Translations under genes and position numbers: made by a program
NCBI GenBank assembly: GCA_016293535.1
Contig: JAEDEB010000002.1
Span: 24,724 to 88,723, forward strand
DNA: 64,000 nt
Reading direction: 5' to 3'
Source of the DNA: Bacteroidales bacterium
GTDB taxonomy: Bacteria; Bacteroidota; Bacteroidia; Bacteroidales; UBA932
Shown: positions 8,370 through 28,300 of the stretch, piece after piece
Layout: each line of letters opens with the position of its first letter
Numbering within the stretch: the stretch's first letter is position 1
The notes under the pieces: model-generated
Databases searched by the model: none
Told to the model about the DNA's origin: nothing
Seen by the model: the letters and a program-made list of their open reading frames with translations, nothing else

Positions 8370-8981
8370 ATGATTACAATAGGATTCAAACAGTCTGGAA
8401 ACTGCTGGCTCAGGGCCATACTCGCCCTGGGGCTCGGCATTGTGATGCTCATCAACTGCATTCAAGGCACGGACCCTGTCGTTCTGCTGGTGAAGGTGTG
8501 CGGATGCTTCGTCATTGCTGCGGGCATATTCTCCCTTATCTACGGACTGATAAAGAAGAATGAACGCGACTTCAGCCTGATGATGGTCAATGCCCTCGTG
8601 GACGTGATTCTCGGCGCGGTGCTCTTCCTCTTTGCAGGGGCCATATCAAAAATATTCTTCTACCTGGTCGGGTTTCTGCTGATTTTCGTGGGAATCTGGG
8701 AGATCATCACCCTTTTCAGCGCACGCAAATGGGTAAATACCGGTTTCGTATCATACCTTCTCCCCATAGTGATAATCGTTCTTGGCACTCTTCTTATGGC
8801 CCCGAACATCGGCAAGGCCATAGGATACATCTTTTCAGCAGCCCTGATACTCTACGGTATCTCCGACATTCTGACGCTGTACAAGATACGACAGGCCATG
8901 AAGGCATTGGAGATCCATGCTGAGGACGTCAGTCGGGACGGGGAGCAAACAGAAAGCAAGGAGGACTCTGCAGAGGTATGA
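8370..8981 (+). CDS. Integral membrane protein (DUF308/HdeD-like)
   Basis: 203 aa with about six hydrophobic helices and an acidic C-terminal tail. Overlaps the dnaG start by 4 nt. Confidence 0.55.
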   Translation: MITIGFKQSGNCWLRAILALGLGIVMLINCIQGTDPVVLLVKVCGCFVIAAGIFSLIYGLIKKNERDFSLMMVNALVDVILGAVLFLFAGAISKIFFYLVGFLLIFVGIWEIITLFSARKWVNTGFVSYLLPIVIIVLGTLLMAPNIGKAIGYIFSAALILYGISDILTLYKIRQAMKALEIHAEDVSRDGEQTESKEDSAEV

Positions 8982-10978: not shown

Positions 10979-11018
10979 CGGACAGGCGAAATTATGGAAT
11001 AATAGAACAGAGAAAGAT

Positions 11019-13211
11019 ATGGACAAGAAATTCAAGAGAACATTAGTCACCAGCGCGCTCCCTTATGCGAACGGGCCGGTACACATAGGTCACCTCGCGG
11101 GCGTTTACATTCCTGCCGACATATACGTCCGGTACCTGCGTATGCGGGGCGAAGACGTGCTCTTTATATGCGGTTCGGATGAACACGGAGTTCCTATTAC
11201 AATCAAGGCGCGCCAGCAGGGCGTCAGCCCTCAGGACATCGTGGATCGTTACCACAAGATAATCAAGGACTCGTTCACAGGTCTCGGAATCAATTTCGAC
11301 ATATATTCCCGCACCTCCAGCAAGGTCCACGAAAAGAACGCTTCCGATTTCTTCCGCAAGCTCTACGACGAAGGAAAGTTCGTCACGAAGGAGAGCGAGC
11401 AGTACTATGATCCCGAGGCGAAGACCTTCCTTGCCGACAGATACATAGTCGGAACCTGCCCGAAATGCGGTGCCGAGGGGGCATATGGCGACCAGTGCGA
11501 GAAGTGCGGCTCTACACTCAGCCCTGAGGAACTCATAAACCCGAAATCCAAACTCAGCGGGGCAGAACCCATAAAGAAGAAGACCTCACACTGGTACCTT
11601 CCTTTGAACGAATACGAGAGCTGGCTGTCGGAGTGGATACTCGAAGGTCACAAGGAGTGGAGGAGCAATGTGTACGGTCAGTGCAAGAGCTGGATAGACG
11701 GCGGACTCCAGCCGCGAGCCGTCAGCCGCGACCTCGACTGGGGCGTGCCGGTTCCGGTCGAAGGGGCGGAAGGAAAGGTGCTCTATGTATGGTTCGATGC
11801 ACCGATAGGATATATTTCCAACACCCGGGAGTTGCTTCCGCAGAGCTGGGAACAGTGGTGGAAGAGCGAAGATACCAAACTGGTCCATTTCATCGGAAAG
11901 GACAACATAGTATTCCACTGTATCGTATTCCCGTCAATGCTGAAGGCCTATGGGGACGGGTACATTCTTCCGGACAACGTGCCTTCGAACGAATTCCTCA
12001 ACCTCGAGGGAGACAAGATTTCCACCTCAAGAAACTGGGCGGTATGGGCGCACGAGTACCTGGAGCAGTTCCCGGGTAAGGAAGACGTGATACGTTACGT
12101 GCTGACGGCAAATGCACCCGAGACCAAGGACAACGATTTCAGCTGGAAGGATTTCCAGGCTCGCAACAACAGCGAACTGGTCGCTGTCTTCGGCAATTTC
12201 GTCAACAGGGCCGTCGTGCTGACACACAAATATTTCGGGGGCAAGGTACCAGCCCGCGGCACACTTCAGGACATTGACCGCGAGACACTTGCCCAGATTC
12301 CGCAGATCAGGGCCAGCCTTGAGAAGAATCTGGATGGCTACCATTTCCGTGAGGCTCTCAAGGATGCGATGAACATCGCGCGCGTGGGTAACAAGTACAT
12401 CTCCGATGCTGAGCCTTGGAAGGTTGCGAAGACAGATATGGAGCGCACGGCAACCATACTGAATGTGTGTCTGCAGATTTGCGCAGACCTGGCCATTGCT
12501 TTCGAGCCTTTCACTCCTTTTGCTGCGGAGAAACTCCGCAAGATGCTTGATGTGACTCTCTTCGCCGGATATGACCATCGCAAGGGGGAGCAGGAAACCG
12601 TCAACACCTACAGGGACGGCGAAGCTGCCGCACTCCACACTCTTCCGTTCGGCGGGACTGCTGTCTGCGAAGGCGCCTGCGAGGGCGGAGTCCGCTTGGA
12701 ATGGAATCTTCTGGGTGAAGAAAGCATACTTCCTGAAGCTCACCAGCTTGGAGCCGCCGAACTCCTTTTTGCAAAGATCGAGGACGACGCCATCCAGGCA
12801 CAGCTTGACCGTCTCGACGCAATCAGGGCGGAAAGGGAAGCTGCAGCAAAGGAGGAGGCTGCAAAACAGGTCGAGCCACAGAAGGCTGAAATCAGTTTCG
12901 AGGAGTTCGAAAAGATGGATATAAGGACAGCCACCGTTCTGGAAGCTGTCAAGGTTCCTAAGACCGACAAACTGCTTCAACTTACCATAGACACAGGTAT
13001 TGACAGGAGAACCATAGTCTCCGGAATCGCCGAATACTATACAGCTGAGGAGATGGTTGGCAAGCAGATTTGCATACTGGCCAACCTCGCGCCGAGAAAA
13101 ATCCGTGGAATCGAAAGCAAGGGAATGATTCTGATGGCGCGACAGGGCGACGGCAAGATGCGCTTCATCACGCCTCAGGAAATTCTGGCTAACGGCGCCT
13201 GCATAGGCTGA
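11019..13211 (+). CDS. metG: Methionine--tRNA ligase
   Basis: 730 aa. HIGH motif (PVHIGHL), zinc knuckles (CPKCG...CEKCG), KMSKS variant (KISTSRN) and a C-terminal Trbp111/EMAP-like tRNA-binding domain ([23 protein letters not shown]). Confidence 0.95.
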
Positions 13212-13223
13212 CGCAGACCGTAC

Positions 13224-13838
13224 ATGAAAAGATTTGTGCTTACATGCCTTTGCGTCCTGCTGGTTTCAGGCTACGCGACGGCAACGGAGAAGGAGAAGGT
13301 TCTCAACGGTTTTGACGGCGGAATGATGGTACATTCGGGCTTCCTGAAAGGCAGCATTCCTCAGGTGGGCATAGAGACTTCAGGAGCTCCGATCGGAATT
13401 GGAGGGGTTTTGCGACTTCACCTTGGGAAGCATTGGAGACTGGGAAGCGAAGGATATGTGTCCACGCTCCCTCAACTTCACAACGGCAGCTATATAAAAT
13501 ACGGATGGGGCGGATTGCTCGGGGATTTCTATCTGACAGCAGGACGTTTCATGCCGTTTGCCGGGCTCACCCTGGGAGGAGGAGCGCAGACCTCCTTTCT
13601 GATGAAGGAAGAGCCCGCAGAGGAGTGGGGACCGGTAGGGGAAACGTATTTCAACAAGAAAGGGTTTATGGCCATTGACCCATTCGTAGGATGCGAGTTC
13701 ATTCTTACCGGAGCCTTGCACCTCACACTCAAGGCCGACTGGCTGCTTGCCCTGGGCAAATCATCTTCCTCCGGCACAATGTCTCTGCTCAGGCCGACCG
13801 GTCCCAGAATCTATTTCGGTTTCATATTCAATCACTGA
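13224..13838 (+). CDS. Small outer-membrane beta-barrel-like protein (hypothetical)
   Basis: 204 aa with a signal peptide and alternating Gly/aromatic-rich strands. Confidence 0.5.
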   Translation: MKRFVLTCLCVLLVSGYATATEKEKVLNGFDGGMMVHSGFLKGSIPQVGIETSGAPIGIGGVLRLHLGKHWRLGSEGYVSTLPQLHNGSYIKYGWGGLLGDFYLTAGRFMPFAGLTLGGGAQTSFLMKEEPAEEWGPVGETYFNKKGFMAIDPFVGCEFILTGALHLTLKADWLLALGKSSSSGTMSLLRPTGPRIYFGFIFNH

Positions 13839-13858
13839 CACTAGACAATAATTATTCA

Positions 13859-13866
13859 TAACTTTG
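13859..13866 (+). promoter_or_regulatory. Candidate -7 promoter box TAACTTTG
   Basis: Matches TAnnTTTG about 30 nt upstream of the ATG at 13896. Confidence 0.4.
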
Positions 13867-13895
13867 GCATTGTCAAGACACAATGTCAAAGGGAT

Positions 13896-14519
13896 ATGAA
13901 ACGCATTATTGTCATTCTCATTGTCTCTACCATAATGTCAGCCGTCCCGGCAGCAGCGGCGGACAGAGAGAAGACCCTCATGAAACCCGGGCGTCCGGCA
14001 AATGAAATCAGCATCAGTTACGGCGGGCTCTCGTTGCCGCACATGGCAAACATTTTCGGCGGGATACTCGGGACGGGACTCAGCGGAGGATACTCCAAAC
14101 TTGACAAGGCATCTACCGTCGGAGCGATATGCCTCGAATACCAGCGGCATCTCGGACGTCACATCGCAGTTGGAGGATGCATAGTGGAGGAGACGGTAAT
14201 GCTTACCTTCGACAAGAAGACCGGCGAGACCGAAAGTGGGGAACCCATATATGAGGAGGGCGACCGTCAGTGCAACACCTTCCTGACCCTGATGCCGTCA
14301 GTAAAGATTCCGTGGTTCTATCGGGAACATGTCAGCATGTACTCGGGATTAGCGCTCGGAGCGTGGTACAACCCCAACGGAGGAAGCAGCAAGTTTGGCT
14401 TCGCCGGCCACGTGAGCGCCGTGGGCGTTGACGCCGGCAACAGCGCAGTGCGCGCCTTCGCGGAAATCGGTTTCGGTTTCAAGGGGCTCGCCCTCATCGG
14501 CATCAGGTTCAGTTTCTAA
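13896..14519 (+). CDS. Small outer-membrane beta-barrel-like protein (hypothetical)
   Basis: 207 aa with a signal peptide (…PAAAADRE) and Gly/aromatic-rich strands. The C-terminal residue is Phe (…IGIRFSF), as is usual for OMPs. Confidence 0.5.
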   Translation: MKRIIVILIVSTIMSAVPAAAADREKTLMKPGRPANEISISYGGLSLPHMANIFGGILGTGLSGGYSKLDKASTVGAICLEYQRHLGRHIAVGGCIVEETVMLTFDKKTGETESGEPIYEEGDRQCNTFLTLMPSVKIPWFYREHVSMYSGLALGAWYNPNGGSSKFGFAGHVSAVGVDAGNSAVRAFAEIGFGFKGLALIGIRFSF

Positions 14520-16519
14520 AACTGACCGTCATCCTGCGAATTCAGTCCATACCTTCTGATAAGCACTGAAATCTCCGGATCCTTGTTGCCGCGGAATACC
14601 TTGCTGTGGTCTTCCCTGCAGGCATCAAGATAGCACTGAACGGCCTTCTGGTCGTCTCCCAGGCGAGAATATGCTATGGCAAGCAGATAGTTCACGTCGG
14701 CATTCGGCTCAAGCGACGAAAGAACGGCCTGTGCACTGATGTTCCTGTCCAGCGCAAGGTAGGCCACCGCCGTGTTGTAGTCGGCATAAGGAGCGAGTAT
14801 GGACGCAGCCTTTTCGTAATCCCTGTCCTGTATTGCACGAACGCCTGTTGCATAGAGGGTGTCTATCTCCTCTGTATCCACAAACTCCCGCTTGCGAGCC
14901 GTTGACTTGAGATGGAAACTGAAAGTCACATTCCTGAGCTTGGGATAAAGCCTGTCCTTTACATACCTGAAGGATTTCATCTCCGCTGCCATCCTGCGTT
15001 CACGCTGATCGGGATCAGGTGCGGATGAACACGAAAAATAGATTTCCCGCTCAGCCGCGGAAATGGTCGAATCCCTCGAGACGAGTTCGTCAAGCAGGCC
15101 CCAGTTCTCGGAAAGGGAACGGGACAGAACAATCATACGGCGCGGAGCCTGATGCTTGCTTATGCTCCCCTGCTCATCGACGGAGAAACCGCCGGCCCTG
15201 ACGAGGGAATCGGAAAGCTCGCGTGCCATCCTGTCGACATGGCGCCTTAGGTTCTCCGCACGCAGACGGGAGACCTTTGTGTTGATTGCGTATGAACCGT
15301 CGGGCGACGCCGAAGAAGTGACAACCAGCGAATCAAGGGTAAAACTTCCGTTCGAAAGAACATCGGTTACATAGCCGCGCACCTTTGCGAGTTCCTCTGC
15401 ATTCCTGCCCATCGAAAGGTCCAGTTCAGCCTTTCCCGCGGCGAAGACTATGTTGCAATTCGCATTGACCCCTACCTGTCTTTCGACCATCCTCCGGACG
15501 AAACGCTTGGAATTGAGGCTTTCCTCATCGATAAGGTCGCTGACTGAACTGATTATGAACTCGATTTTCTTGGACTGAGGTGTTTCATATATCATCTTTC
15601 CCTGCTCATACACCTCACCGGTCAGGGCTACATAGGCTTTCTTGAGCTTAGGACGAGCATTTATGGTCTGGACATAATTGTACTCGAAATCTCCGTCGGA
15701 GCTGACTATGACCGTATCCAGCCGTATACCCTCCGTAACGATAGGAGCTTTCACGTATTTGGCGTACATCTTCTGCATCCTCGCCTTGCGGCGCTCGTTC
15801 CTCGCTTTGGCGGCGCGGTTGGTATAATGCTCCAGCGCATCGCGTGCAGTAACCCCGTAGGCGGAGGCGAACTTCTCGTCCGATACCTCGGTGGAGTCTG
15901 TCTTGAACGCGTAGATTTCAGGAATATAACGGCGCAGGAAGATTTCCAGCTGATCGACGTTCACGAACTTCGTCGTATCCGAGATTATGCTGTCCACGAA
16001 CTTCTCGTAATGCTGGTAACCCTTGAGCTGAGCCTTGCGGTACTCCTTTCCAGTGATAATGACCGGGTCCAGGCGAATGGAATCCTCGAGTACATACAGA
16101 TCCGGGCAGAAGCGCACCTGCCATTTGCTGTCCTGCATCTTCGCCGGAACCACCACCTTGAATTCAAGGTCCACCTTTCCGTGGCGTTCTGCTACATTCT
16201 TGAAGGTAGCGGTCACATACGAGGCCTGCAGCACGTCGTGCACGGATTCCAGTCCATTCTCGTCTTTTTCATTGCGCATCAGGTACATGACCGAACCGTC
16301 CTCATCCACATAGCGTATGGAGTCGGGCTTCGGGAGTTCGAAGGACGCCGTATCCACGACCGTGATTTCCCTGTCGGTGAGAAGAACATTGATGCCCATT
16401 TCGTTCTCGGTTATATAGCTGAGTTTCCGCTGGGTGGAGCAGGAAAAAAGAGCGGGAACAAGAAATGCGGCCACGGCTGCTGCGAAGAATATTTTCTTTT
16501 TTGGGGAAATCGTGTTCAT
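14516..16519 (-). CDS. Lipoprotein with DUF3868-like N-region, OmpA-like peptidoglycan-binding motif and C-terminal TPR
   Basis: 667 aa with lipobox LFSC followed by a non-acidic STQRK. DUF3868-like stretch (KVDLEFKVVVP...WQVRFCPDLYVLEDSIRLDPVIITGKEYR). OmpA-like signature (IVFAAGKAELD...SSASPDGSYAINTKVSRLRAENLRRHV). TPR-like tail. This is the last gene of the coiled-coil operon. Confidence 0.65.
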   Translation of the reverse strand: MNTISPKKKIFFAAAVAAFLVPALFSCSTQRKLSYITENEMGINVLLTDREITVVDTASFELPKPDSIRYVDEDGSVMYLMRNEKDENGLESVHDVLQASYVTATFKNVAERHGKVDLEFKVVVPAKMQDSKWQVRFCPDLYVLEDSIRLDPVIITGKEYRKAQLKGYQHYEKFVDSIISDTTKFVNVDQLEIFLRRYIPEIYAFKTDSTEVSDEKFASAYGVTARDALEHYTNRAAKARNERRKARMQKMYAKYVKAPIVTEGIRLDTVIVSSDGDFEYNYVQTINARPKLKKAYVALTGEVYEQGKMIYETPQSKKIEFIISSVSDLIDEESLNSKRFVRRMVERQVGVNANCNIVFAAGKAELDLSMGRNAEELAKVRGYVTDVLSNGSFTLDSLVVTSSASPDGSYAINTKVSRLRAENLRRHVDRMARELSDSLVRAGGFSVDEQGSISKHQAPRRMIVLSRSLSENWGLLDELVSRDSTISAAEREIYFSCSSAPDPDQRERRMAAEMKSFRYVKDRLYPKLRNVTFSFHLKSTARKREFVDTEEIDTLYATGVRAIQDRDYEKAASILAPYADYNTAVAYLALDRNISAQAVLSSLEPNADVNYLLAIAYSRLGDDQKAVQCYLDACREDHSKVFRGNKDPEISVLIRRYGLNSQDDGQF

Positions 16520-16531
16520 CGGTTCAGAAAA

Positions 16532-17182
16532 TCAGAACAGAAAATGAAAGGAGAGTGATATGTCGTCAAGGGTTCCGAACCAGCGCGGGCCCTGCTCCCT
16601 TATATCCATGCATTCAGGACATCCATAAAGGGTATATTTCAGGTAGCGGCCGCCCCATGCGCCCATACCCAGTTCCAGATTGCAGTAACTGCTGAGCATG
16701 AAGGTATATCCGAGCGACAATCCCGCACCCACGCCCTGACCTGTCTCCAGGGCAGGACGCCAAATCCCCGTAGTGGAGATTCCGCTGTACTGAGCCTTGA
16801 GTCCCAGCCAGAATCCGGAATATACATACCACGGCCAATAGCGGAACCCAAGCCAGCCGGTCTGCTGCTGATTCCATATCGGAGTCTTTTTCGTCTTGAA
16901 CTTCCAAGAGTTATACCTTCCGCCCAATTCGAGGGAGAAGTGGCGGCCTACGGCCACACCGAGGGCGAGGTTGGGCGTCCCGAAGTTGAGCCACTGCAGG
17001 GCATTCGTACCTATGGACCATCTCTTCATCTCCTTGCTCCTCACAACGTTCTCTGAAGCGGCGTCATCCTTCTTTGCGGAAGCTTCGGCACCGATGAAAA
17101 CATCAGCGGCAAAGACAGTGGTCGGAACGGAGAGCAACAGGACCGATGCGGCTATGCAATTAACAAAAAGAACTTTCATCAT
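16532..17182 (-). CDS. DUF3575-like outer-membrane beta-barrel protein
   Basis: 216 aa with a cleavable signal peptide (…TTVFAADV). Carries the motif WSIGTNALQWLNFGTPNLALGVAVGRHFSLELGGRYNSWKF, which I recognise as DUF3575-type, and ends in Phe. Its start overlaps the upstream stop by 4 nt. Confidence 0.65.
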   Translation of the reverse strand: MMKVLFVNCIAASVLLLSVPTTVFAADVFIGAEASAKKDDAASENVVRSKEMKRWSIGTNALQWLNFGTPNLALGVAVGRHFSLELGGRYNSWKFKTKKTPIWNQQQTGWLGFRYWPWYVYSGFWLGLKAQYSGISTTGIWRPALETGQGVGAGLSLGYTFMLSSYCNLELGMGAWGGRYLKYTLYGCPECMDIREQGPRWFGTLDDISLSFHFLF

Positions 17183-19212
17183 TCTGTAGTAGTTATCATC
17201 ATTGTTGCAGGGATATAGTCACTCTGTCTGTCGTTGTTGCCGTCTGAAATTCTCAAAGCCAGCCACAAATCTCCCGCCTTGAAAGAATCCGGGAGAGGTA
17301 CAATCTGCAGTGATATGCTCAGCACATCCCCCTCGGCAGTTGCAGTGAGAGATCCCGCAGAGGACTCTCCTTCTGAAGTCAAGACAAGCACCGACAGGGA
17401 AGAAGGGACTTTTGCAAGGGCATCTGCAGTTCCCGAAGGCAGTATCAGGAAGGACAATTCCGCGGAAGCATTTCCCACAGTGTCGCACATCACCGCCACT
17501 GAATCCCCCACATCCGGCAGCCAGTTCACCGACTGTATCCTGGAAAGAAGCTTGCTTATGTCCTTGCTCATGTCCTTGCTCATGCCCGAAAGTGCGGAGT
17601 ACAACTTCTTCAGATCGGAGACTGAAGACTTGAGAGCATTGACCGCAGTCTGAAGTTTGCGGCTGTCCCTCGACCAGGAACGGTAAAGGTCAGCCTCCTT
17701 CGCATTGAGCGAATCCAGCTGTACTGCCACGCTGTCCGCTATGCGTCCCTCCATCTCCTTGGTCGCCGACAATATGGCCGCCTCATATTTAGTCTTCATA
17801 AGTTCCTCAAGATCGGCCAGTTCGGTCTTGTACAACTCTATCCTCTCCTCATTTGCCTTGATTGCGCGCCAGCAGGAATCGAGCAGCTCGACATTACGCC
17901 CGATCAGAACGGCATTCTTCCTTATCGCCGCAGCATTCTCGGACACCTCTGCCGCCTGCTCCAGCAGAGTTGTTCCGAAAGAATCGAACTGATCATATGC
18001 ACCATTCATTTTCTCAATGGCATTCTGTATCCTCCCTATGTTAACGGAATTCGTGTCCATGTGTTCCTTCAGGGCGGCAATTGTATCCTTCTGACGCAGG
18101 ATTTCAGCGGCATTGTCGGCGATGGCGACGGCAGCAGCTGATATCTTGTCCGCATTGGAGCCGAAGTCCCTGAGCAGCGCGGCATTCTGCTCCTGAAGGC
18201 CTGCAATTCTCGCCGTCTCGGACCTGTATCCCGCCACAAGATCAGCGTATTTCTGTACCTTGCCCCGTATCTCCTTTTCAAGCGAGGTGGTAAGCGATAA
18301 TATGTACTCCTCGTTGTTCTCAAGCTCACTTTCCATCTCCGCGGCAAGGGAACGTATGCAGGAATCAAGTTTCGCCTTGGTGTAATAACCGTCGAGCAAT
18401 GTGTTGACCCAAGCCTTCATACTGTCCTCATATTTGAGGATTCCATCCTTGAAATATGCCTCATAGGCAGTCTTGAGCTCAGCCTCGGCAGCCTCCACGG
18501 TAGGGACTATGCCCGCAGCTATATCGGCCACCTCTGCTTTCATTTCATTGCCGAGATTCTCTATCGATGCGGGAATATCCTCATTGAAGGCTTTGTCTAT
18601 GGCTGCTGACAGCTTTTCCATATCCGAATCCGCCTTGTCTATTGCCGTTCTTGCGGCAGTCACGTCAGCACAGAGGGCGTTGTATTGAGCGAGGGTGGCA
18701 AAACTCGCAGAAGCCCAGGATCTCAGGTCGGAAACTTCCGAATCCGCATACCGCCTGAGTTCATCTATCCTGCTCCCGAGATTGGTGTCCGCGTTCTGAA
18801 GCTCCTTGACAGCGTTCTTGAGGGCGGAGAGTTTCGAAGACATCTCCCTGCGGTATGCAGAAATCTCCAGAGACAGGGTTCCGGACGAGACGGTGAGATC
18901 GGAATAAGCCTTTTTCTCCACCTCTGAAAGCCTGTCCTCGGACTTTTCTATCTCTTCTTCAAGAACGGCGGCCTTCTCTTCAAGGGATGAGAGATAGGTC
19001 TGCAGCGAACTTTCGAGTTCCTCAAGGTCCGGGATGGTCTCCCTTATGCGGTCAAGCTGCTGCTGTATCGTATTGATTGCCTGCTTGCCCTCCCTGTCTA
19101 TCTTGATATGGGTATCGAAGAGATTCTCGCGGAAATCACATCCGCAGAGCATCAGGAGTGCCGTTGCCGCAAGTATAGTGGACTTTTTTAACATGCCTGA
19201 AAACAATTTCAT
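17179..19212 (-). CDS. Coiled-coil surface lipoprotein, paralogue 3 (677 aa)
   Basis: Lipobox LCGC followed by DFRENLFD. About 520 aa are Pro/Gly-poor, charged, heptad-like sequence. The C-terminal ~120-aa domain starts at LLSRIQSVNWLP and contains ILPSGTADALA and RISDGNN. Paralogous to the two upstream genes. Confidence 0.75.
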   Translation of the reverse strand: MKLFSGMLKKSTILAATALLMLCGCDFRENLFDTHIKIDREGKQAINTIQQQLDRIRETIPDLEELESSLQTYLSSLEEKAAVLEEEIEKSEDRLSEVEKKAYSDLTVSSGTLSLEISAYRREMSSKLSALKNAVKELQNADTNLGSRIDELRRYADSEVSDLRSWASASFATLAQYNALCADVTAARTAIDKADSDMEKLSAAIDKAFNEDIPASIENLGNEMKAEVADIAAGIVPTVEAAEAELKTAYEAYFKDGILKYEDSMKAWVNTLLDGYYTKAKLDSCIRSLAAEMESELENNEEYILSLTTSLEKEIRGKVQKYADLVAGYRSETARIAGLQEQNAALLRDFGSNADKISAAAVAIADNAAEILRQKDTIAALKEHMDTNSVNIGRIQNAIEKMNGAYDQFDSFGTTLLEQAAEVSENAAAIRKNAVLIGRNVELLDSCWRAIKANEERIELYKTELADLEELMKTKYEAAILSATKEMEGRIADSVAVQLDSLNAKEADLYRSWSRDSRKLQTAVNALKSSVSDLKKLYSALSGMSKDMSKDISKLLSRIQSVNWLPDVGDSVAVMCDTVGNASAELSFLILPSGTADALAKVPSSLSVLVLTSEGESSAGSLTATAEGDVLSISLQIVPLPDSFKAGDLWLALRISDGNNDRQSDYIPATMMITTTE

Positions 19213-22200
19213 AAGTCGGATGTGTTTACTGTCATATATGCCTCTTCCTCAATTACGGACTCATAGGCCGGGAGGAGGGCGGAATAGGCTGCTCGACTGC
19301 CCTGGGGAACGATAATGCGCCCCACCGAAGCATAGCTGAAGGAATTATCCGCGATTGCCGGAGGAACTGCGGAGCGGAAACGTATCAGTTCCATATTGCT
19401 GTCTTCAGACGCGAAGGCCAGGGACCCTATGCTCTCCACGGATGATGGAATATCCAGGCTGGTAAGAGGGCAGCCGTAGAAGGCGCAATCCCCTATCGTC
19501 TTCACGGAAGGTGGCAGAAGCAAGTTCGCAAGAGACCCGTTGGAGAACTGCCAGTCGGAAGGTATGGTTTCAAGACTCTTGAAATACTGCAGGAGGGAAA
19601 GGTCGGATATCGCTTCAAGCGGGACGTATGCCATAGGATCGACATCCGTTACGGTATAGAAGCCTCCATAGCATCCGTCCCAGCTTTCGCCATCGCTGTA
19701 CTGAGTTTCCACAGCCTCTTTGAATTTTTTCTGCTGGACTGAATCTGCAAACTCCACCTTTCGGGCCGCAAGTGCTTTCAAGTCATCACAGTCGGACGGG
19801 ACCCTCCGGCAGAAGAAGGAATCATTGTCCAGCAGAAGGGTCTGGAGACGGCATTCCTCAGGAATGTAGAGAATTCCCGTAGCCGAGCCCCTGAAATCCA
19901 CACGGACTGCATCGAAGGAGGCTTTGAGGAGCAGGTCCCCGCCATTCCCGTTACGGATTGTGACCGAAGGCAGGACCAGGTCCGAACTGAGCCGCCCTAT
20001 GGACGCCGCATCCATGAACAGTTCCTTGACGACATTGGAGCCCAGGGAAATGGAATCTGCGAGAGAAGAAGTGAGGTCTATGGAGCTGACGTCCGGGAAA
20101 TAGCACAGTCCTTCGAGGGATGAGACAGCCGTTCCGGAAAGGTCGAAACCGGCACCGGGTTCATTGGCGGCGTCGAAAAGCACGGAATCCCTGAGGGTCA
20201 AGAGTCCGTCCGAGTTCATATCGCAGTTTGCCAGAAGATATTCCCTGAAGGCGCTGTCCGGAACTGAGAGTTCCTCGTCGACCTCGATGCATTCGAGGGA
20301 GCAGTAATCCGTCTGGAAGGAGTTGTTCCCGTCTGAAACGATGATGGAGACGCTTGCTCCCGTTTCAGGGGTGAAGAAAGTCATAGGAAGCACGGTGGCG
20401 TCCACGGTCACCGACAGAATATCTCCGTCGGCACTGACAGTACGCAGGCTTGCCGGAATCTCGCGTCCTGCCCTTGTGAGCGTGTTCAGAAAATAGGCAG
20501 AGATGAGTTCCGGATGGGAGGCAAGCCCTTCAGCCGTTCCGGAAGGCAGAACCTTGAAGCGCAAGCTTGCAGCAGCGGTATGGTAACGTCCCGCGGTATA
20601 AGTCACCGCTGCACCCTTGCAGCCGGGAACCGGCAACCTTGACATCGACTGTATTCTTGAAAGGAGTTTGTCCACCTCACTGCGGGCATTCACTATACGC
20701 TGCTGTATCGAGGCGAAACGATCATTAAGTGATTTCACTGCGGCTTCAGCCCTGCCGACCCGCGCCGCAATCGTGTCGCGTCTCTCGGCGAAACTGCCGT
20801 TGAAATCATCCAGAGAAGCGTTTACAAGGCTGAGTCTGCTCCGGACTTCCTCTTTGATCCGGCCTTCCGCCTCCTCTATGGCCGCCTGGATTGCGGCATT
20901 GTACTCTTGGCGGAGTTTCTCTTTTCTCACGACCACGGAGTCTCTGAAATCGTTGAGGTTTTCAGTATTGCTCCTGATTGCCTCGACATTGGCTTCCAAA
21001 GCTTCAGCATTCCGGGCAATGAGCGAAGAGGCTTCTGCAATATCCTCGGAGTTCTTCACTATGGACTCGAGACTTTCTGCCAGCCACTTTTCATAGCGGC
21101 TGAGCACTCCGAGACTGTCCTTCATTTCTTCCACCCTGCCGTTCTGTGCATCGGCAAGGGTTTCAAGGGTTTTAACTTCAGGAGAGATGTCTCTGATGAG
21201 AGAATCCACGACAAATATGCGGGCTGCGTTTGCCTCTATGGCGGCTGCGTCAGCATCAATCTGCGCCGCCAGGTCGATAAGAGTCTGCGGGAGAGCCTTC
21301 TCGAAAGCATCGACTTCGTCAAGACTCTTTGCGAGGTCATCAAGGTTTCGGTTGTTTGCCTCCACAAGGGAGTCCAGATGGGAAGACAGGGATTTGACCG
21401 CACTGACCAGGTAGGCCTTCTGGGCCTTGAGGGCTTCATTGAAACGAAACATGGACAAGGAAATCATCTGCTCCACGTCAGTTATGTTGGAATACCCTGT
21501 GAGCTGGTTGTTCACCCATGATTCCATTCCTGCCCTGGATGTCTCGAGCGCAGACTCGAGAGCCTTCTTGTACTCCCCTTCCACCTTTGAGCTGAAGGCC
21601 TTGACGGCAGACTCCATATCCTTACCAAGCTTTTTGATATCATCCTTCAGCTGATTCTCTGCAGCCTCAAGTGAAGCCGGGATAAGAATGTCGACAGCGG
21701 TGTTGAAGCGGGACAGGACTGAACTCACGAGGTTCTCAAGCGTAACGACGGTCTGCTGTACGGAGGACATCACGGCAACCGTGCTGTTGTACTGTTCGAG
21801 CGTTGCGTAAGTTCCCGATGTCCAGTTCTCCGCTTCCGAAAGCGCGTTGTCAGTATATTCCTTCAGCTGGTCAATCCTGTTTCCAAGTGCCGCATCCGAT
21901 TCTCTCAGTTTGGTCAGAAGAGCATTGATATCGGAAATAGCCGTTTCCATTTCCATTTTCTGAGCCTCGATCTGAGCCCGGATGTCACTCTCCATCGAAG
22001 ATATTTCCCCGCTCATTTCCACCGAAAGCTCTTCTATTCGGGCCTCCAGCTCCTTTTCCCTTTCGGAGAGTTCCTCGAGAGCGACGGCAAGTTCGTCTAT
22101 GTAGGCCTCGAGAGCCTGTCTGGTCTGCTCGGCGTCCTCCACGGACACATCCATCATTTCCACCTGACGTGCGAGAGGGTTTATGGTCTGGTCCACAAGG

Positions 22201-22328
22201 GTGTCAAGCTGGTTCCTGATATCCTCGAATCTCTCGTCGAATTCCGTACATGAAGAATTGACAAACAGCGGGACAAAAACGGAAAGCAGTGCGCCAAGGG
22301 TAGCGGAAAGTTTTCTTAAATGTTTCAT
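19209..22328 (-). CDS. Coiled-coil surface lipoprotein, paralogue 2 (1039 aa), with C-terminal leucine-rich-repeat extension
   Basis: Lipobox NSSC followed by TEFDERFED. Residues 1-683 are co-linear with paralogues 1 and 3 (RIDQLKEYTD...WTSGTYATLEQ, LLSRIQSMSRLP, VLPSGTAEGLA, VSDGNN). Residues 684-1039 add a DMNSDGLLT Ca-loop-like motif and BspA-type LRRs (VKTIGDCAFYGCPLTSLDIPSSVESIGSLAF). Confidence 0.75.
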   Translation of the reverse strand: MKHLRKLSATLGALLSVFVPLFVNSSCTEFDERFEDIRNQLDTLVDQTINPLARQVEMMDVSVEDAEQTRQALEAYIDELAVALEELSEREKELEARIEELSVEMSGEISSMESDIRAQIEAQKMEMETAISDINALLTKLRESDAALGNRIDQLKEYTDNALSEAENWTSGTYATLEQYNSTVAVMSSVQQTVVTLENLVSSVLSRFNTAVDILIPASLEAAENQLKDDIKKLGKDMESAVKAFSSKVEGEYKKALESALETSRAGMESWVNNQLTGYSNITDVEQMISLSMFRFNEALKAQKAYLVSAVKSLSSHLDSLVEANNRNLDDLAKSLDEVDAFEKALPQTLIDLAAQIDADAAAIEANAARIFVVDSLIRDISPEVKTLETLADAQNGRVEEMKDSLGVLSRYEKWLAESLESIVKNSEDIAEASSLIARNAEALEANVEAIRSNTENLNDFRDSVVVRKEKLRQEYNAAIQAAIEEAEGRIKEEVRSRLSLVNASLDDFNGSFAERRDTIAARVGRAEAAVKSLNDRFASIQQRIVNARSEVDKLLSRIQSMSRLPVPGCKGAAVTYTAGRYHTAAASLRFKVLPSGTAEGLASHPELISAYFLNTLTRAGREIPASLRTVSADGDILSVTVDATVLPMTFFTPETGASVSIIVSDGNNSFQTDYCSLECIEVDEELSVPDSAFREYLLANCDMNSDGLLTLRDSVLFDAANEPGAGFDLSGTAVSSLEGLCYFPDVSSIDLTSSLADSISLGSNVVKELFMDAASIGRLSSDLVLPSVTIRNGNGGDLLLKASFDAVRVDFRGSATGILYIPEECRLQTLLLDNDSFFCRRVPSDCDDLKALAARKVEFADSVQQKKFKEAVETQYSDGESWDGCYGGFYTVTDVDPMAYVPLEAISDLSLLQYFKSLETIPSDWQFSNGSLANLLLPPSVKTIGDCAFYGCPLTSLDIPSSVESIGSLAFASEDSNMELIRFRSAVPPAIADNSFSYASVGRIIVPQGSRAAYSALLPAYESVIEEEAYMTVNTSDL

Positions 22329-24361
22329 AGACTGCCTCCTTTTCTTGAAACTGCAACTTTCACGAAGGAAGACAGGCGGTTATTGTTCCCGTCGCTTATG
22401 CGAAGGGCGACATTGAAGGATGCTCCGTCCTCAAGAGCCGCCGCTGGCAGGGAAGAGAGCACGCATCCCACCGTAAGTTCGTCTCCGGATGCCGACGCGG
22501 CGCTTGCTGAAAAGATGGTATCAGCTCCGTATCCAGGCATATGGACATACAGGCCAAGGGCTGAAAGATTCTGAGCCAGGGCTTCCGCACATCCGGAAGG
22601 AAGTATCTTGAAATCCATGGACAACACGGCATTTCCATCCTCGGAGCACTCAAGAACATGGACCCCATCACTGTAGACCGGGAGGTAAACGACAGACTGT
22701 ATCCTGGCAAGAAGTTGCTCCAAGGCGGCCTCAATGTTCGCAAGATCCGCGAGCATAGCCTCGAGCTCGGCCACATCGGCTTCAAGGTCATCCAGAGTCG
22801 AGGACATGGAATCAAGGCGGTCGCTGATGTCATCCATATCTCCCTTGAACTGCTGTTCAAGATCGGCCACTGCATCGTCTGCATTTCCCTCCGACTCGCG
22901 TATTCCGTCTGCAATCGCCTTTTTGAAGGCAGCCTCTATCCTGAGACTCACCGCATCAAGGCTGTCGCGAAGACTGGCAGCCGCCCTTGCATTGGCAGCA
23001 ATGGCCTCTGCCTGCCTGTGTATCTGGGCGGCATTCGCGGCAATGAGTTTGTCCTGGTCAGCTATGTTCCCGGTGTTGGTATTGATTGAATCGAGCAGAA
23101 CCCGGTACCCGGCCAAGAGGTTCTCGGCATTCCCGACCGCATTCCCGTGGCGGGTCATGAGTTCGTCAAGAGCTGAGTCGTTGCTCTCAAGGGCAGTCCT
23201 GTTGTCTTCCACAAGCTTCTTCATCGAGGAGAGGTCATTCTCGCAGCCGGAAATTGCCAGGGAGTTTGCCTTTATGAGAAGTGAGTTTGCATTGATTCGG
23301 CTTGTATAGTACAGAAGGCTGTCATATTCCTTTTTCTTAGCCTCCTCCAGAGGCTCCACCCTCGATTCGAGATCGGCGACAAGTACAAGATTGTTCTCTA
23401 TGGAAAGCTCAAGAGTGCTGCCCAGACTGTTGATATGGCTGATAAGAACAGTCTTCTGTTCGTCTATTGCCACCTCCATCGCCAGGTTGAGAGAATCCAG
23501 CTTGGCCTGTATCTCCCAAGTGCGATAATAGGATTCCAGACGGACTCCCACCCAGACCATGAGGGATTTCTCGGACTCAGCTATGCTCGCAGCGAGTGTT
23601 GTCTCATAGGCGAGTCTTATCCTCTCGCCGGCCTCCCTGAGTGAGGCATTGAGACTTTCCATGGTCGCTTTGATTTCATCACCTACCCCGTCTTTCATCT
23701 TTTCAATATCCTTGAGGGCAGCTTCAATGCAGCTTGTAAGCCTGCTGTCAAGGCTCTGGGCGGCCTGCTTCGAACTCTCTGCAGCAAGTTTGACTGCATT
23801 GACATCCTCCGCCGCAGCAGCCATCTGTTCAAGAGTGGCGAAGGTGGCCGCAGTCCAATCCCTGTATGAACCAAGCTCACCGTCTATGTACTCTTTCATG
23901 GAATCTATCCTTTCTGAAAGAGCCTTGTCAGTTTCCTCAAGTTTTGCAATGGACTTGTTGATAGACTCCAGATCCTTGTCAATTATTGACTCGACCAGTT
24001 CAAGCCTGTAAACGAGATCGGCCCGGACAGCATCAAGCCTGCCAGCAAAACCATCCTTGACCGAAGCTATCCCGGCCTCAAGTTCATCTGCCTTCTCCTG
24101 CAGGGCAAGGGCTTCCTTCTCGATGGCCGCCCTGTAGGTTTCCGCATCGGAGATAATCTTATGGAAAGACTCTGCAGAGGCTTCAATGGCAGCTCTCTGC
24201 TCCTCAAGCGAGGCAATATCCTCGCTCTTGAGGTCATCCACCTCCTTCTGAAGTTGATCGACCTCCTTCTCGGCAATGTCACAAGCGACGGCGCAAGGCA
24301 GCAGAAAAGCCAACACGGCGCTGTAAGATAGACATCGCACGCGGGAAAAAGAATAAAACAT
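22325..24361 (-). CDS. Coiled-coil surface lipoprotein, paralogue 1 (678 aa)
   Basis: Lipobox AVAC followed by DIAEKEVD. Long heptad-like region with RIDSMKEYID...WTAATFATLEQ. C-terminal domain with LLARIQSVVYLPVYSDG, ILPSGCAEALA and RISDGNN. First gene of the operon. Confidence 0.75.
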   Translation of the reverse strand: MFYSFSRVRCLSYSAVLAFLLPCAVACDIAEKEVDQLQKEVDDLKSEDIASLEEQRAAIEASAESFHKIISDAETYRAAIEKEALALQEKADELEAGIASVKDGFAGRLDAVRADLVYRLELVESIIDKDLESINKSIAKLEETDKALSERIDSMKEYIDGELGSYRDWTAATFATLEQMAAAAEDVNAVKLAAESSKQAAQSLDSRLTSCIEAALKDIEKMKDGVGDEIKATMESLNASLREAGERIRLAYETTLAASIAESEKSLMVWVGVRLESYYRTWEIQAKLDSLNLAMEVAIDEQKTVLISHINSLGSTLELSIENNLVLVADLESRVEPLEEAKKKEYDSLLYYTSRINANSLLIKANSLAISGCENDLSSMKKLVEDNRTALESNDSALDELMTRHGNAVGNAENLLAGYRVLLDSINTNTGNIADQDKLIAANAAQIHRQAEAIAANARAAASLRDSLDAVSLRIEAAFKKAIADGIRESEGNADDAVADLEQQFKGDMDDISDRLDSMSSTLDDLEADVAELEAMLADLANIEAALEQLLARIQSVVYLPVYSDGVHVLECSEDGNAVLSMDFKILPSGCAEALAQNLSALGLYVHMPGYGADTIFSASAASASGDELTVGCVLSSLPAAALEDGASFNVALRISDGNNNRLSSFVKVAVSRKGGSL

Positions 24362-24416
24362 ATCCTACTTGCTGGAAAATCCTATGTTGTGTGTAAAAGT
24401 AAGCAACAAATCCTGA

Positions 24417-24424
24417 CAAAAGTA
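24417..24424 (-). promoter_or_regulatory. Candidate -7 promoter box TACTTTTG for the coiled-coil operon
   Basis: The minus strand reads TTTTTTTT-TACTTTTG. The box matches TAnnTTTG about 55 nt upstream of the ATG at 24361, inside the 74-nt gap after ribF. Confidence 0.4.
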
Positions 24425-24435
24425 AAAAAAATTGC

Positions 24436-25320
24436 CTATCCAATAATGGACAGGCAAGATTCTTTATCTAAGGCAAGCTGGATGGAGAGTTCCCTGAGGT
24501 CCGCGAAACGACGCTCATCCCTGATTTTTCTCAGGAAGGTAAGCCGCATCGGAAGGCCGTAGATTTCTTCATCAAAGTCGAATATATTGGTCTCTATGGT
24601 CCTGGAGTTGGTCGTCCCTACCGTCGGTTTCACACCTATGTTGCACATCCCGTAACGCTGTTTTCCGGCAGTTTCCACCCTGACCAGATACACCCCGTCT
24701 GAAGGGACCAGCTTGAGGGGTTCATACAGGCTCATATTCGCCGTAGGGAAGCCCAGAGTGCGGCCAAGTCGGTTACCGGCAACCACAACCCCATAGAGGC
24801 TGTAGTCATAGCCGAGCATTGCGGCGGCCTGTTCCATGTCCCCGACCTCGAGGGCTGTGCGTATCTTGGTGGAACTGACTGCATAACCTGCATTCGAGGA
24901 GACGAGAGGGGCCTGTATGACATCCAGTCCGAGGCTTGAGGCCACCGCCACAAGATCCTCCGGACTGCTGCAGTCCGAGCCCATACGGTTGTCGTAACCC
25001 AGGAGCACGGCTGTTCCTGAACACAAGCCCATCACGTATTCCCTGAGGAAAGCCTCCATAGTCAGGGCTGCGAATTCCCTTGTGAAATCCAGGACTTCCA
25101 CCCTGTCGACTCCCAGGGACAGGAGCATCTCCTTCTTCTCCGTGAGAGATGACAGCAGGCGCAGCCCTCGCGCATCCTTGCGGAGCACCATGCGCGGATG
25201 AGGCCAGAAAGTGATTACCGCACTCTCTTCTCCACGGGTCTTGGCGCTTGCTACCAGTTGCCCGATTACTTCGCGGTGTCCCAGATGGACACCGTCGAAG
25301 AATCCGGTGGCTACAACCAT
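24436..25320 (-). CDS. ribF: Bifunctional riboflavin kinase / FMN adenylyltransferase
   Basis: 294 aa. N-terminal GFFDGVHLGH nucleotidyltransferase motif and C-terminal riboflavin kinase motif GFPTANM. Confidence 0.9.
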   Translation of the reverse strand: MVVATGFFDGVHLGHREVIGQLVASAKTRGEESAVITFWPHPRMVLRKDARGLRLLSSLTEKKEMLLSLGVDRVEVLDFTREFAALTMEAFLREYVMGLCSGTAVLLGYDNRMGSDCSSPEDLVAVASSLGLDVIQAPLVSSNAGYAVSSTKIRTALEVGDMEQAAAMLGYDYSLYGVVVAGNRLGRTLGFPTANMSLYEPLKLVPSDGVYLVRVETAGKQRYGMCNIGVKPTVGTTNSRTIETNIFDFDEEIYGLPMRLTFLRKIRDERRFADLRELSIQLALDKESCLSIIG

Positions 25321-28300
25321 TTTACGAGTCCGAAATCCTGTCTGTGAGGCAGGAGGCTGTTCTTAGGATATATTCTGGTCGCTACCTGGTACATACCGGT
25401 AGTCTCAGGAAGAACTGCAGCCTGGAAGGTAGCGGTACCGTCGTGAGCATCCACGAGCTTGAAGGTAACCTTCTCCCTGATGTGAAGATTGCCCTTCTTG
25501 TCAGTAGAGGTGAAGAGGAGTTCGACACCTATGTCCTCCGGATTGAGGTCAGCTATGTTGAGCACGACCTCGGAACGGATCTCGTTGTCGGAATCGAGCA
25601 CGTATGTATCGTCCGGATGGGTATATGATATGACCTCGACGTTCTTCCATGAACGGAGGACACCCTTCTTCCATGCAGCGATTTCCCTTGCCATAGCAAA
25701 ATCGTTGGCAATCATCTTCATGCTGCGCTCTGACTGAGGCTCATAATACTGTTTGCAGTAATCCGTGAGCATACGGTTGGTGGTGAAGTTGCAGGCCACC
25801 TGGGCAATGGTGTTCTTGATGTATCCCACCCACTCTGCAGAGCGTCCGGTATTCCTGTCGGTATTGTAGTATGCAGGGGCGATTTCGTTCTCAATTATAT
25901 TATATATGGTAGCAGAGTCGAGCTCGTTCTGGTATCCCTGGTCGTCGTAGGTTCTTTCCATAGGCAGAGCCCAGCCGGCTCCCTCCCTGTATCCCTCGAC
26001 CCACCATCCGTCGAGGACGGAGAAGTGCATCACACCGTTCATCGAAGCCTTCTCTCCGGATGTTCCGGAAGCCTCCTGAGGACGGGTAGGGTTGTTCATC
26101 CAGACATCCACACCCTGTACAAGCCTCTTGGCGAGGGTGATGTCATAGCCAGGCACGAAGACTATCTTGCCGATGAAGCGAGGCTGCTTGCTTATCTCGA
26201 CAATCTGGCGGATGAGGTCCTGACCGGCACCGTCGGCAGGATGGGCCTTGCCCGCAAAGATGAACTGTACAGGATGTACAGGGTCATTTACAATGGAATC
26301 GAGTCTGTCAAGGTCGCTGAAGAGCAGGGTGGCTCTCTTGTATGTCGCGAATCTCCTTGCGAAACCTATGGTCAACACGTCGTCGCGCAGGGTTTCCTTT
26401 ATGGTCACGATCTGGCGAGGAGAATAGTGACTTGCTATCTGAGGGTCAGAAAGTCTCTCCCTGATTACGTCTATAAGGGTCTTCTTGAGGAACTTCCTCG
26501 TGTTCCACACCTCCTCGTCTGAAACCGCATAAATGCCCTCGAAGCACTTGAGGTCATAGTGATGGGTCTTGAACTCAGGTCCGAACACCCTCTCGTGTAT
26601 CGCCTTCCACTCCTTCGCCGTCCATGTCGGATAGTGGACGCCGTTGGTAACGTAGCTGACGTGATTCTCTTCAGGCAGGTAACCCGGATACATGGAAGCG
26701 AATATCTCCTGGCTCACCTTGCCGTGGAGCATCGATACGCCGTTCACCTCCTGAGAGATGTTCGCCGCAAGATTGCTCATGGAGAACTTGGCGTTCACAT
26801 CGTAAGGGTCGTTCTTTCCAAGGCTCATGAGAGTTATCCAGTCTATCTTGAGCTGTTCCGGAATCTGGCCTATGTACTGGCGGAGTATGCCCTCGTCGAA
26901 GGCATCGTGACCTGCCGGAACAGGGGTGTGGGTAGTATAGAGGGAAGAAGCCCTCACTACCTCCATGGCTTCCTCGAAGCTGAGATGGTCGTTGTTGACA
27001 TACTCACGGAGCCTCTCAAGACCTATGAAAGCCGCGTGGCCCTCATTGCAGTGGTACACCTGAGGGTTGAGTCCGAGGGCACGGAGGGTGCGGATTCCGC
27101 CTATTCCGAGAAGAAGCTCCTGCTTGAGCCTGTTCTCCCAGTCGCCGCCGTAAAGCTGGTGGGTCACCTGACGGTCCTCAGGAAGGTTCTCATCGAAATC
27201 GGTGTCGAGAAGATAGAGGTCCGTGCGTCCCACAGCCACCTTCCATATACGTGCCTGCAGGGTCCTTCCCGGGAATGCAACCTGCACCTTGAGCCAGTTT
27301 CCGTCCGCGTCGAACACCTGCTCTGCAGGTATCTTCATGAAGTCCTGTGGAGTGTACTCCGCAACCTGATTGCCCTGAGCCGTGAGTTTCTGGTTGAAGT
27401 ATCCGTAGCGGTAGAGAAGACCTACGGCCACGAGGTTCACGTTCATGTCGCTGGTTTCCTTGAGGTAGTCACCTGCGAGGATTCCGAGACCTCCCGAATA
27501 AATCTTCAGGGAAGTGTCGAGTCCGTACTCCATGCAGAAATATGCAATCGACGGATCCTTTCTTTCGGCCTTTGCCGCCATATATCCGTTGAAGTCGTCC
27601 ATCACCTCTCCGAGCATCTGGAGGAAGGCCGCATCCTTGCTGAGCTCTTTGTATCTCTTTATGCTGACACGGTCAAGTATGACCATAGGATTGTGTCCCG
27701 ACTTGTGCCAGAGCTCAGAATCAATATACTTGAACAGCGCCTTTGCGTTGTCATTCCAACACCACCAGAGGTTCTTGCAGAGAGTCTCAAGGCCCGAAAG
27801 CGCCTTAGGCAGATGTCTGGTTACCATTACGCTCTGCCATTTCGGCGAGTCGATCTCTATTTTCGTGTACATGCTCTTTTCCTTTTTTGCTGCCATATCG
27901 TAGATGGCGGTATTAATAACTTTTGAAAGTGCCCTGCTATAGGCCTCCTTGTAATATTCTATCTGATTCTTCCACAGTGCGATGTCCGCAACGTCCCTTG
28001 CCGAGTCGCTGTACTTCTGCCATTGGGCTGCGGAGAGGGATGCCATTTCCTTCAGCCTTGCGGTCACAGCTCCCACGACCTCGAAATAATTTGAATCGTT
28101 CCTTTCAACCACAGTTATGCCCGGATGCTCCTTCCGATAGCGGTCGCGCACCCAGAGCCCGAAGCCGGCAAGACTCGTCGTCAGCGTAGGAACGCCGAAG
28201 GCAAGACTCTCGAGCGGGGTATAGCCCCAAGGCTCATAGTATGAAGGGAAGAACGTGGCGTCAAGACCGATGAGAAGGTCATAATAGGCCATATCGAATA

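Follow-up and report, generated by a model that had tools for sequence, protein, structure and literature searches.

Among described systems, the stalks of trimeric autotransporters such as SadA, EibD, UspA1, NadA, and YadA resemble the proteins discussed here in their long heptad arrays, with aliphatic residues at position a and Asn at position d, in their conserved short interruptions, and in their variable binding heads. Braun's lipoprotein (Lpp) provides a second point of comparison: it is a periplasm-facing, peptidoglycan-linked protein of 58 residues in which an N-terminal lipidated Cys directly precedes a parallel trimeric coiled coil. A third is found in collagen-like trimeric adhesins such as Legionella Lcl, which combine an anchor, a trimerizing fibrous stalk, and a C-terminal binding module. 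We analyzed three adjacent genes, here called paralogues A, B, and C, at the head of a five-gene minus-strand unit in a Bacteroidales bacterium of the UBA932 lineage. The unit lies in a 64,000-nucleotide stretch of contig JAEDEB010000002.1 (assembly GCA_016293535.1, positions 24,724 to 88,723), and the whole of that stretch is referred to below as the window. A first-pass annotation had proposed that the three products form a single heterotrimeric coiled-coil stalk. The analysis places A, B, and C in a single large family of Bacteroidales surface lipoproteins that has no name, as copies that diverged long ago and are very probably independent members rather than partners in an in-register heterotrimer. 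Our best explanation, which we hold at about even confidence, is that each is a surface lipoprotein of stalk-and-tip design that assembles with itself, most likely into a homotrimer, and that all three are cotranscribed with a DUF3575 barrel protein and an OmpA-like lipoprotein.

The family profile matches trimeric autotransporter structures directly, but A, B, and C differ from these proteins in being anchored by an N-terminal lipid, with the head at the C terminus and the polarity therefore reversed. The family also has Asn at nearly every d position over up to ~18 heptads, and its stalk length is tightly conserved, whereas that of trimeric autotransporters is highly variable. Searches of A, B, and C against Pfam and NCBIfam gave no match to the YadA-like C-terminal anchor, a barrel with four strands per chain (PF03895). 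Given the missing anchor, which defines the group, and the reversed polarity, we do not regard A, B, and C as trimeric autotransporters. With Lpp they share anchoring by an N-terminal lipidated Cys, but they are ten times longer, end in immunoglobulin-like (Ig-like) or leucine-rich repeat (LRR) domains, are probably surface exposed, and have no sequence relationship to it. The overall plan of the collagen-like adhesins, represented both by Lcl and by the collagen-repeat/DUF4988/BACON/LRR_5 lipoproteins of locus L109, is also that of A, B, and C. In addition, some family members carry Lcl_C or Fib_succ_major tips, and the collagen-like and family proteins can be accompanied by the same DUF3575/OmpA-like gene pair. 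Unlike those adhesins, however, A, B, and C have an alpha-helical stalk rather than a Gly-X-Y triple helix, and none has Lcl_C.

Other candidate relationships were less apt. Paralogue B ends in an LRR_5 domain of the kind found in BspA-type surface proteins of oral and gut Bacteroidetes, but in B the repeats form just the tip, they are absent from A and C, and the stalks belong to a separate family. DUF4988 (PF16378) was rejected as a relative, since A alone matched it (E = 0.043, 14 bits against a cutoff of 30), over the coiled-coil-to-beta junction only, and hhalign gave a probability of 0.4% that the family's C-terminal domain is related. Tripartite alpha-helical pore-forming toxins (Nhe, Hbl, Ahl, and Smh) likewise consist of three helical paralogues encoded in one operon, but A, B, and C are lipoproteins, are twice as long, and have Ig-like or LRR C termini, and their relatives are mostly encoded by single genes. 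The match to NheA was at chance level (E = 0.025, 13.5 bits against 500), and no ClyA/Hbl fold was matched by Foldseek.

Judged from their sequences, A, B, and C are true paralogues, with similarity far above that expected from chance or from coiled-coil composition. Pairwise BLASTP E values of 3e-40 to 4e-55, together with a MAFFT alignment that is co-linear from end to end (~690 columns, ~25% identity, more than 80 invariant columns), show that both the paralogy and the co-linearity are real. Regular expressions placed the motif RID..Y at residues 151, 151, and 148 of A, B, and C, respectively, an invariant Trp at 169, 169, and 166, ATLxQ at 175, 175, and 172, WV(G/N) at 270, 271, and 268, EG(N/R) at 491, 488, and 488, RIQS at 553, 558, and 558, and (I/V)SDGNN at 655, 664, and 655. 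The first-pass annotation had counted all seven landmarks by hand, and every one of its positions was reproduced; its register is thus no artifact of hand counting, and its description of low identity with preserved spacing also holds. Its statement that the paralogues are co-linear to within about 5 residues masks nine stalk indels (of 1, 1, 4, 2, 5, 1, 3, 11, and 3 residues in the MAFFT alignment) that partly cancel one another.

The extent of the family became apparent only in an exhaustive search with a profile of A, B, and C, which returned 1591 representatives (50%-identity clusters) at an E value of ≤1e-3, 966 at <1e-10, and 479 at ≤1e-30. Word-index searches had recovered just 25 to 34 proteins, none of them named, which is why the exhaustive search was needed, and a genome scan with a single protein as the query gave no match. 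Most hosts in the GTDB species collection belong to Alistipes, Tidjanibacter, and other Rikenellaceae, and some to Muribaculaceae, Bacteroidaceae, and Prevotella. Dozens of members cover profile positions ~10 to 675 in one co-linear stretch and then differ at their C termini, where LRR_5, LRR_4, Big_2, Lcl_C, DUF285, and Fib_succ_major modules occur (LRR_5 in 13 of 30 aligned members). The stalk is not covered by any Pfam or NCBIfam model and yields at most sub-threshold coiled-coil noise. In most representatives the invariant Trp follows the lipobox Cys at a distance of exactly 142 amino acids (aa), despite sequence identities below 50%. The distance from this Trp to RIQS falls into classes of 214 to 218, 268, 288, and 375 to 393 aa, the last being the commonest and including A, B, and C (384, 389, and 392 aa). 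Such exact spacing and quantized lengths are unusual for a fibrous stalk. Across 72 nonredundant full-length members with pairwise identities of 26 to 55%, indels are confined to few sites.

As a working definition, we take a family member to have a lipobox followed after 142 aa by W..(F/Y)ATLxQ, then WV(N/G)..L.GYY, Ile/Asn heptad blocks, (E/D)G, RIQS-x-x-x-P, and a beta-sandwich ending in SDGNN; A, B, and C fall within it, with all landmarks present and family hidden Markov model (HMM) E values of 7e-192 to 7e-220. The shared plan comprises a Sec/signal peptidase II (SPII) signal, a lipidated Cys, a helical stalk of ~530 aa in the commonest length class, an Ig-like sandwich, and an optional tip, and shorter and multimodule stalk classes also occur. 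The lipobox Cys follows a signal peptide in each paralogue (AVAC27 in A, NSSC27 in B, and LCGC25 in C), as expected for the N-terminal lipid anchors suggested earlier, and it is invariant in family alignments of 30 and 38 sequences. The ~530 residues after it contain just 1 to 4 Pro per paralogue and were modeled as nearly all helix by AlphaFold2 (AF2). The ~115-residue beta domain beyond them matches solely Ig-like domains in Foldseek. Both AF2 models agree with the earlier description of a long helical stalk followed by a C-terminal domain. In many relatives (P0016, P0035, P0094, and L062 at 8896-17211, for example), the N-terminal module of ~240 residues (RID..Y..W..ATLxQ..WV) is repeated 3 to 14 or more times; one L062 open reading frame (ORF) encodes 2771 aa with 31 HMM stretches. 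At the level of close homologues, the 90%-identity cluster of A has 17 members and that of C has 2 (with 15 more in a 92%-identical cluster), while B is alone in its own. The LRR-bearing paralogue may therefore be the one diverging fastest between strains.

Several observations favor a parallel trimer. In the distal half of the stalk, strings of the form N-A-x-x-I recur, with Ile at heptad position a and Asn at position d (spacing I-x-x-N-x-x-x-I), in accordance with the core-like placement of Asn read from the sequence at first pass. Across the family, position a is Ile in 97 to 99% of cases and position d is Asn in 84 to 87%, in two blocks of ~8 and ~6 heptads, with Ala common at e, b, and g; several members maintain an unbroken heptad register over 150 to 188 residues. 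Besides designed constructs, a PDB search with profile positions 308 to 555 matched parallel trimers exclusively, among them P22 gp26 (E = 8e-6), EibD (2e-5), and SadA fragments (7e-5), as well as reovirus sigma1, UspA1, NadA, and GCN4-pII fusions. As noted at first pass, Asn at core d positions is a feature of trimeric coiled coils; such layers bind anions. Some of the tips also occur on trimers. Lcl_C is trimeric in Legionella Lcl (PMC11162425) and lies at the C terminus of some family members, and the collagen-repeat lipoproteins of loci L107-L113, with their LRR_5 and BACON domains, show that in related bacteria comparable tips are borne by obligate trimers. The invariant (F/Y)ATL(E/A)Q resembles the beta-layer motif, [aliphatic]-A-T-K-[polar]-[DE], which occurs at heptad insertions of 2 or 6 residues (Hartmann 2016; PMC4786415), but the heptad phase continues across it in 31 of 33 sequences and AF2 models it as helix. 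Overall, we judge the chance that each protein is a parallel homotrimer rather than a back-folded bundle to be even or marginally better, which ranks the homotrimer slightly ahead of the monomeric alternative.

That alternative holds that each paralogue is a monomeric rod of two consecutive antiparallel helical bundles, ~8 and ~10 nm long, in which the Asn-rich helices pack against each other through Asn ladders and Ala contacts without any intermolecular coiled coil. The rod would then be a compact helical platform bearing the Ig-like domain and tip. We consider this unlikely but by far the most serious competitor, and several observations weigh against the homotrimer and in its favor, or against other parts of our explanation. 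AF2 monomer models of C (30-sequence multiple sequence alignment; predicted local distance difference test score [pLDDT], 78.6; predicted template modeling score [pTM], 0.63) and of the archetype P0048 (38 sequences; pLDDT, 76, rising to 88 to 94 in the Asn-rich helices; pTM, 0.63) share one topology, with 8 to 10 helices of 33 to 74 residues separated by breaks of 2 to 6 residues at homologous positions. For proteins of 677 to 814 residues, a pTM of 0.63 implies that the chain folds back into a compact arrangement instead of extending. Insertion hot spots (C residues ~100, 151 to 163, 220, 338 to 343, and 412) coincide with the predicted breaks, and the deletion that distinguishes the short length class runs from the middle of helix 275-336 to the middle of helix 414-486, together with 7 to 21 residues of the last helix. 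There is a weak antidiagonal co-occurrence of Asn between the two blocks, centered at ~411 (0.36, 0.32, and 0.40). Stalk length is far better conserved than in typical extended adhesin stalks, and the coiled-coil similarity in profile searches is partly compositional. Surface export is also at issue: the Bacteroidetes surface lipoprotein export signal is acidic at positions +2 to +6 (K-(D/E)2, SDDDD, or SDDFE; PMC5080379), and among the three paralogues only B (C-TEFDE) resembles it, specifically SDDFE. The residues following the Cys are also acidic in A (C-DIAEKE) and C (C-DFREN), though less typical of the signal, and many relatives have C-KKINE. Finally, tandem family clusters recur in some Alistipes.

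Further support for the back-folded rod comes from the exact Cys-to-Trp spacing and discrete length classes, from the wide apolar face that Ala-rich positions b, e, and g create, and from a Foldseek match of part of the C model to a long single-chain four-helix bundle, 8d9o (TMt, 0.56; probability, 0.99). The first-pass annotation had named antiparallel intramolecular bundles as a result contrary to its proposal, and this is what both models give, in monomer runs that cannot sample a trimer. AF2 is also over-confident on idealized heptads, and the helical part of neither model has an analogue in PDB or BFVD by Foldseek, which matched only the Ig-like beta domain. The Ile(a)/Asn(d) pattern is a parallel-trimer signature, and the heptad register runs unbroken across three of the predicted turns (in 31 of 33, 59 of 60, and 33 of 61 sequences), although phase continuity, like the indel-length spectra, fits tight hairpins and continuous coiled coils alike and so is weak evidence. 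In short-class members, moreover, helices would be mismatched in length to their partners, and an even number of helices per bundle would put the tip beside the lipid anchor. Mean-field direct coupling analysis of the N-terminal and distal regions, performed both with gap states and without them (effective sequence numbers [Meff] of 39 to 168), was dominated by indel and subfamily signal or had too few sequences and therefore gave no usable contact map. The strongest N-terminal covariation involves Tyr residues Y73, Y155, and Y177 of C (window positions ~18682 to 18996), which lie on three different predicted helices and make no obvious contact in either structural model.

Whether the homotrimer or the rod is correct, the heterotrimer first proposed for A, B, and C appears improbable. 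In that proposal the three chains, made in equal amounts by translational coupling, would form one in-register parallel coiled coil with three lipid anchors at its base and three C-terminal domains, one of them bearing the LRR, at its tip. Landmark positions that agree to within 0 to 9 residues speak for it, as do four d layers in which Asn is invariant (N366, N429, N443, and N457 in A), a five-gene order conserved in a sister metagenome-assembled genome (MAG), and the occurrence of triplet clusters in another Alistipes lineage. However, co-linearity is just as good among unrelated, solitary family members. Because the landmark spacing is a family constant, the length and register matching of A, B, and C is no argument for 1:1:1 assembly; their co-linearity reflects inherited family architecture and not mutual adaptation. 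In the stalk, A, B, and C are only 19 to 23% identical to one another, no more than to the family at large, and nearer relatives of B (37% to P0036) and C (45% to P0049) lie outside the window. The start/stop overlaps, ATGA of 4 nucleotides (nt), at the A/B and B/C gene junctions, and at that of C with the DUF3575 gene, are real, but overlaps of this kind are common in operons and uninformative on stoichiometric assembly.

The core layers do not point to co-adaptation of the three chains either. With A, B, and C in register over 153 family-defined core columns, 4 Asn-containing layers are pure and 15 (of 19) are mixed, and 59% of layers are all hydrophobic, no better than in triples drawn at random from unrelated members whose pairwise identities are ≤30% (71 ± 9% mixed, 65 ± 3% all hydrophobic). 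In the Asn blocks, 8 of the 14 d layers are mixed; the residues in A/B/C are, in order, Y/L/N, N/D/A, N/N/N, C/V/Q, M/I/L, N/L/N, N/Q/I, L/M/M, L/S/Q, N/N/N, Q/A/N, N/N/N, Q/N/C, and N/N/N. Only one of the nine stalk indels, that of 11 residues, is register neutral, and the distance from EG to RIQS is 62 aa in A compared with 70 in B and C. While A keeps one heptad phase across residues 315 to 484, B and C shift by +3 near 412 to 420, and a single in-register coiled coil could hardly accommodate a discontinuity that two chains have and the third lacks.

Gene copy number gives a similar picture. A single family gene was found in 72 of 78 loci of a one-genome-per-species collection, and in 23 of the 25 loci with at least 4 kb of flanking sequence on both sides. 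Elsewhere, tandem clusters hold 2, 3, or 5 copies, so three is not a conserved number. Locus L066 has three tandem copies at 62 to 74% identity. In an Alistipes CAG:514-like lineage, 3 + 2 tandem paralogues of 802, 574, 570, 829, and 766 aa (36 to 52% identity; L118, 1500-12265) have a Cys-to-Trp distance of ~160 aa throughout; this array is also present in L052, L054, and L120-L165 and makes up most tandem-cluster loci of the metagenome scan, and the lineage predominates among the human-gut metagenome loci that were retrieved. The neighbors in L004 (700 and 802 aa), considered as a further family triplet, were ruled out as unrelated. Neighboring family genes may nonetheless function together. 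More generally, length and register matching between paralogues is uninformative on hetero-assembly unless set against the family background.

All five genes of the unit (Table 1), in the order A, B, C, DUF3575, and the 667-aa OmpA-like/tetratricopeptide repeat (TPR) lipoprotein, are annotated by NCBI as hypothetical proteins, and the sister MAG retains the same order (locus tags PUA47_01190 to PUA47_01210). A metagenome scan for close orthologues of the A/B/C triplet found none above 30% identity. Upstream, the unit is preceded by a terminator-like hairpin at the end of ribF (24457..24432, minus strand; 11-bp stem, T8) and a 75-nt gap (24362-24435) containing TTTG-type elements; given the hairpin and the gap, the unit probably has its own promoter. 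The ORF read as ribF (24436-25320, minus strand) shares 10 nt at its start with the 3' end of a 1413-aa ORF (25311-29552) that by eye, no family search having been made, resembles a glycogen-synthase/alpha-glucan-phosphorylase fusion. The neighbors are of housekeeping type, no phage or mobile-element genes adjoin the unit, and an Rfam scan of the window was empty.

Table 1. Features of the five-gene unit and of its products, in window coordinates and residue numbers
Feature	Window position	Strand	Residues	Details
Paralogue A	22325..24361	minus		678 aa; family HMM E = 7e-192
A stalk			~28-556	
A Ig-like beta-sandwich			~557-678	no extra tip
A heptad segment	22910..23308	minus	~352-484	single phase, Ile at a, Asn at 7 of 14 d positions
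Paralogue B	19209..22328	minus		1039 aa; family HMM E = 7e-220
B stalk			to ~561	
B beta-sandwich			to ~680	followed by 350-aa C-terminal extension
B LRR tip, BspA type	19302..19577	minus	918-1009	Pfam LRR_5 E = 5e-13, above gathering score
Paralogue C	17179..19212	minus		677 aa; AF2 model m40785aaebc6f
C stalk			to ~560	
C Ig-like beta-sandwich			561-672	
C heptad segment	17791..18216	minus	~333-474	Asn at d, +3 shift near 410
C helices in AF2 model			49-104, 109-162, 166-217, 222-266, 275-336, 341-411, 414-486, 493-557	
DUF3575 outer-membrane beta-barrel-type protein	16532..17182	minus		Pfam PF12099 E = 3e-28
667-aa lipoprotein, OmpA-like segment and C-terminal TPR	14516..16519	minus		last gene of unit; TPR matches
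ribF end, terminator-like hairpin, and 75-nt gap	24362..24457	minus		terminator scan and sequence

The DUF3575 gene and that of the OmpA-like/TPR lipoprotein (~660 aa) form a conserved pair (14516-17182 in the window; 1084-12760 in L109; 15504-17539 in L003). PDB sequence and profile searches with the DUF3575 protein and the 667-aa protein returned nothing. The pair was found again in L003, near a family member, and in L107-L113, where it is very similar to that of the window and heads an operon. This operon continues with two lipoproteins (collagen triple-helix repeats, then DUF4988, BACON, and LRR_5), a 326-aa protein, and a family member with a Fib_succ_major/Lcl_C tip. The L109 orthologue of the 667-aa lipoprotein has a sub-threshold OmpA match (E = 0.006). 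These associations suggest that the pair shares a role with fibrous surface lipoproteins, but its presence in only 3 of ~160 family contexts means that it is not a general requirement for the family's proteins.

The least credible reading is a composite appendage, in which A, B, and C would be separate chains that join side by side or end to end and rest on a base formed by the DUF3575 barrel and the OmpA-like protein. The analogy is with Bacteroides, where DUF3575-DUF3868 genes adjoin those of Mfa-type (type V) pili; in B. thetaiotaomicron, they neighbor an Mfa1 fimbrilin gene (PMC10434189). In favor of this reading, the pair is translationally linked to C, recurs alongside fibrous lipoproteins in L107-L113 and close to a family member in L003, and has parallels in an Mfa_like_1 gene that follows a homologue in L001 and L002 and an OMP_b-brl+OmpA gene that precedes one in L006, but the unit in the window has no fimbrillin or anchor subunit, the sequences contain no hint of strand-exchange polymerization, and the pair's rarity among family contexts also counts against it.

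Returning to three self-assembling stalk-and-tip lipoproteins as the best explanation, the five genes would be transcribed from their own promoter downstream of the ribF terminator, and each paralogue would be processed by SPII, lipidated, and moved to the outer face of the outer membrane. There, each would assemble with its own copies, likely into a parallel homotrimer held together by Ile(a)/Asn(d) layers, such that the cell would carry three different adhesin-like stalk-and-tip fibrils anchored by N-terminal lipids. B would display a BspA-type LRR tip, with A and C lacking an extra tip, and the DUF3575/OmpA-like pair might serve as a base or peptidoglycan tether. We infer SPII processing, surface exposure, homotrimerization, an adhesive role, and the base or tether role from the features described above.

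More tentatively, the family may constitute an undescribed class of fibrillar adhesins, each a parallel trimeric coiled coil that is anchored by lipid at the N terminus and has Asn in nearly all d layers. It would be a kind of giant Lpp, or a barrel-less counterpart of the autotransporters, widespread in gut Rikenellaceae, with interchangeable LRR, Big_2, and Lcl_C tips and, at some loci, the DUF3575/OmpA-like pair. As a sub-case of this proposal, the mixing of tandem paralogues into heterotrimers finds no support, and the interest of the finding rests on the family rather than on the heterotrimer first proposed. Very little is known about the surface structures of Alistipes and its relatives, which are abundant commensals of the gut. 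This large family is not modeled in Pfam or NCBIfam, goes by no name other than "hypothetical protein," and lacks a solved or analogous structure. Should the AlphaFold models be correct, an Asn-ladder antiparallel bundle would represent a new all-alpha fold. If the stalks are instead lipid-anchored trimeric coiled coils, Gram-negative bacteria would have, in addition to autotransporter barrels and pili, a third means of extending binding domains from the cell.

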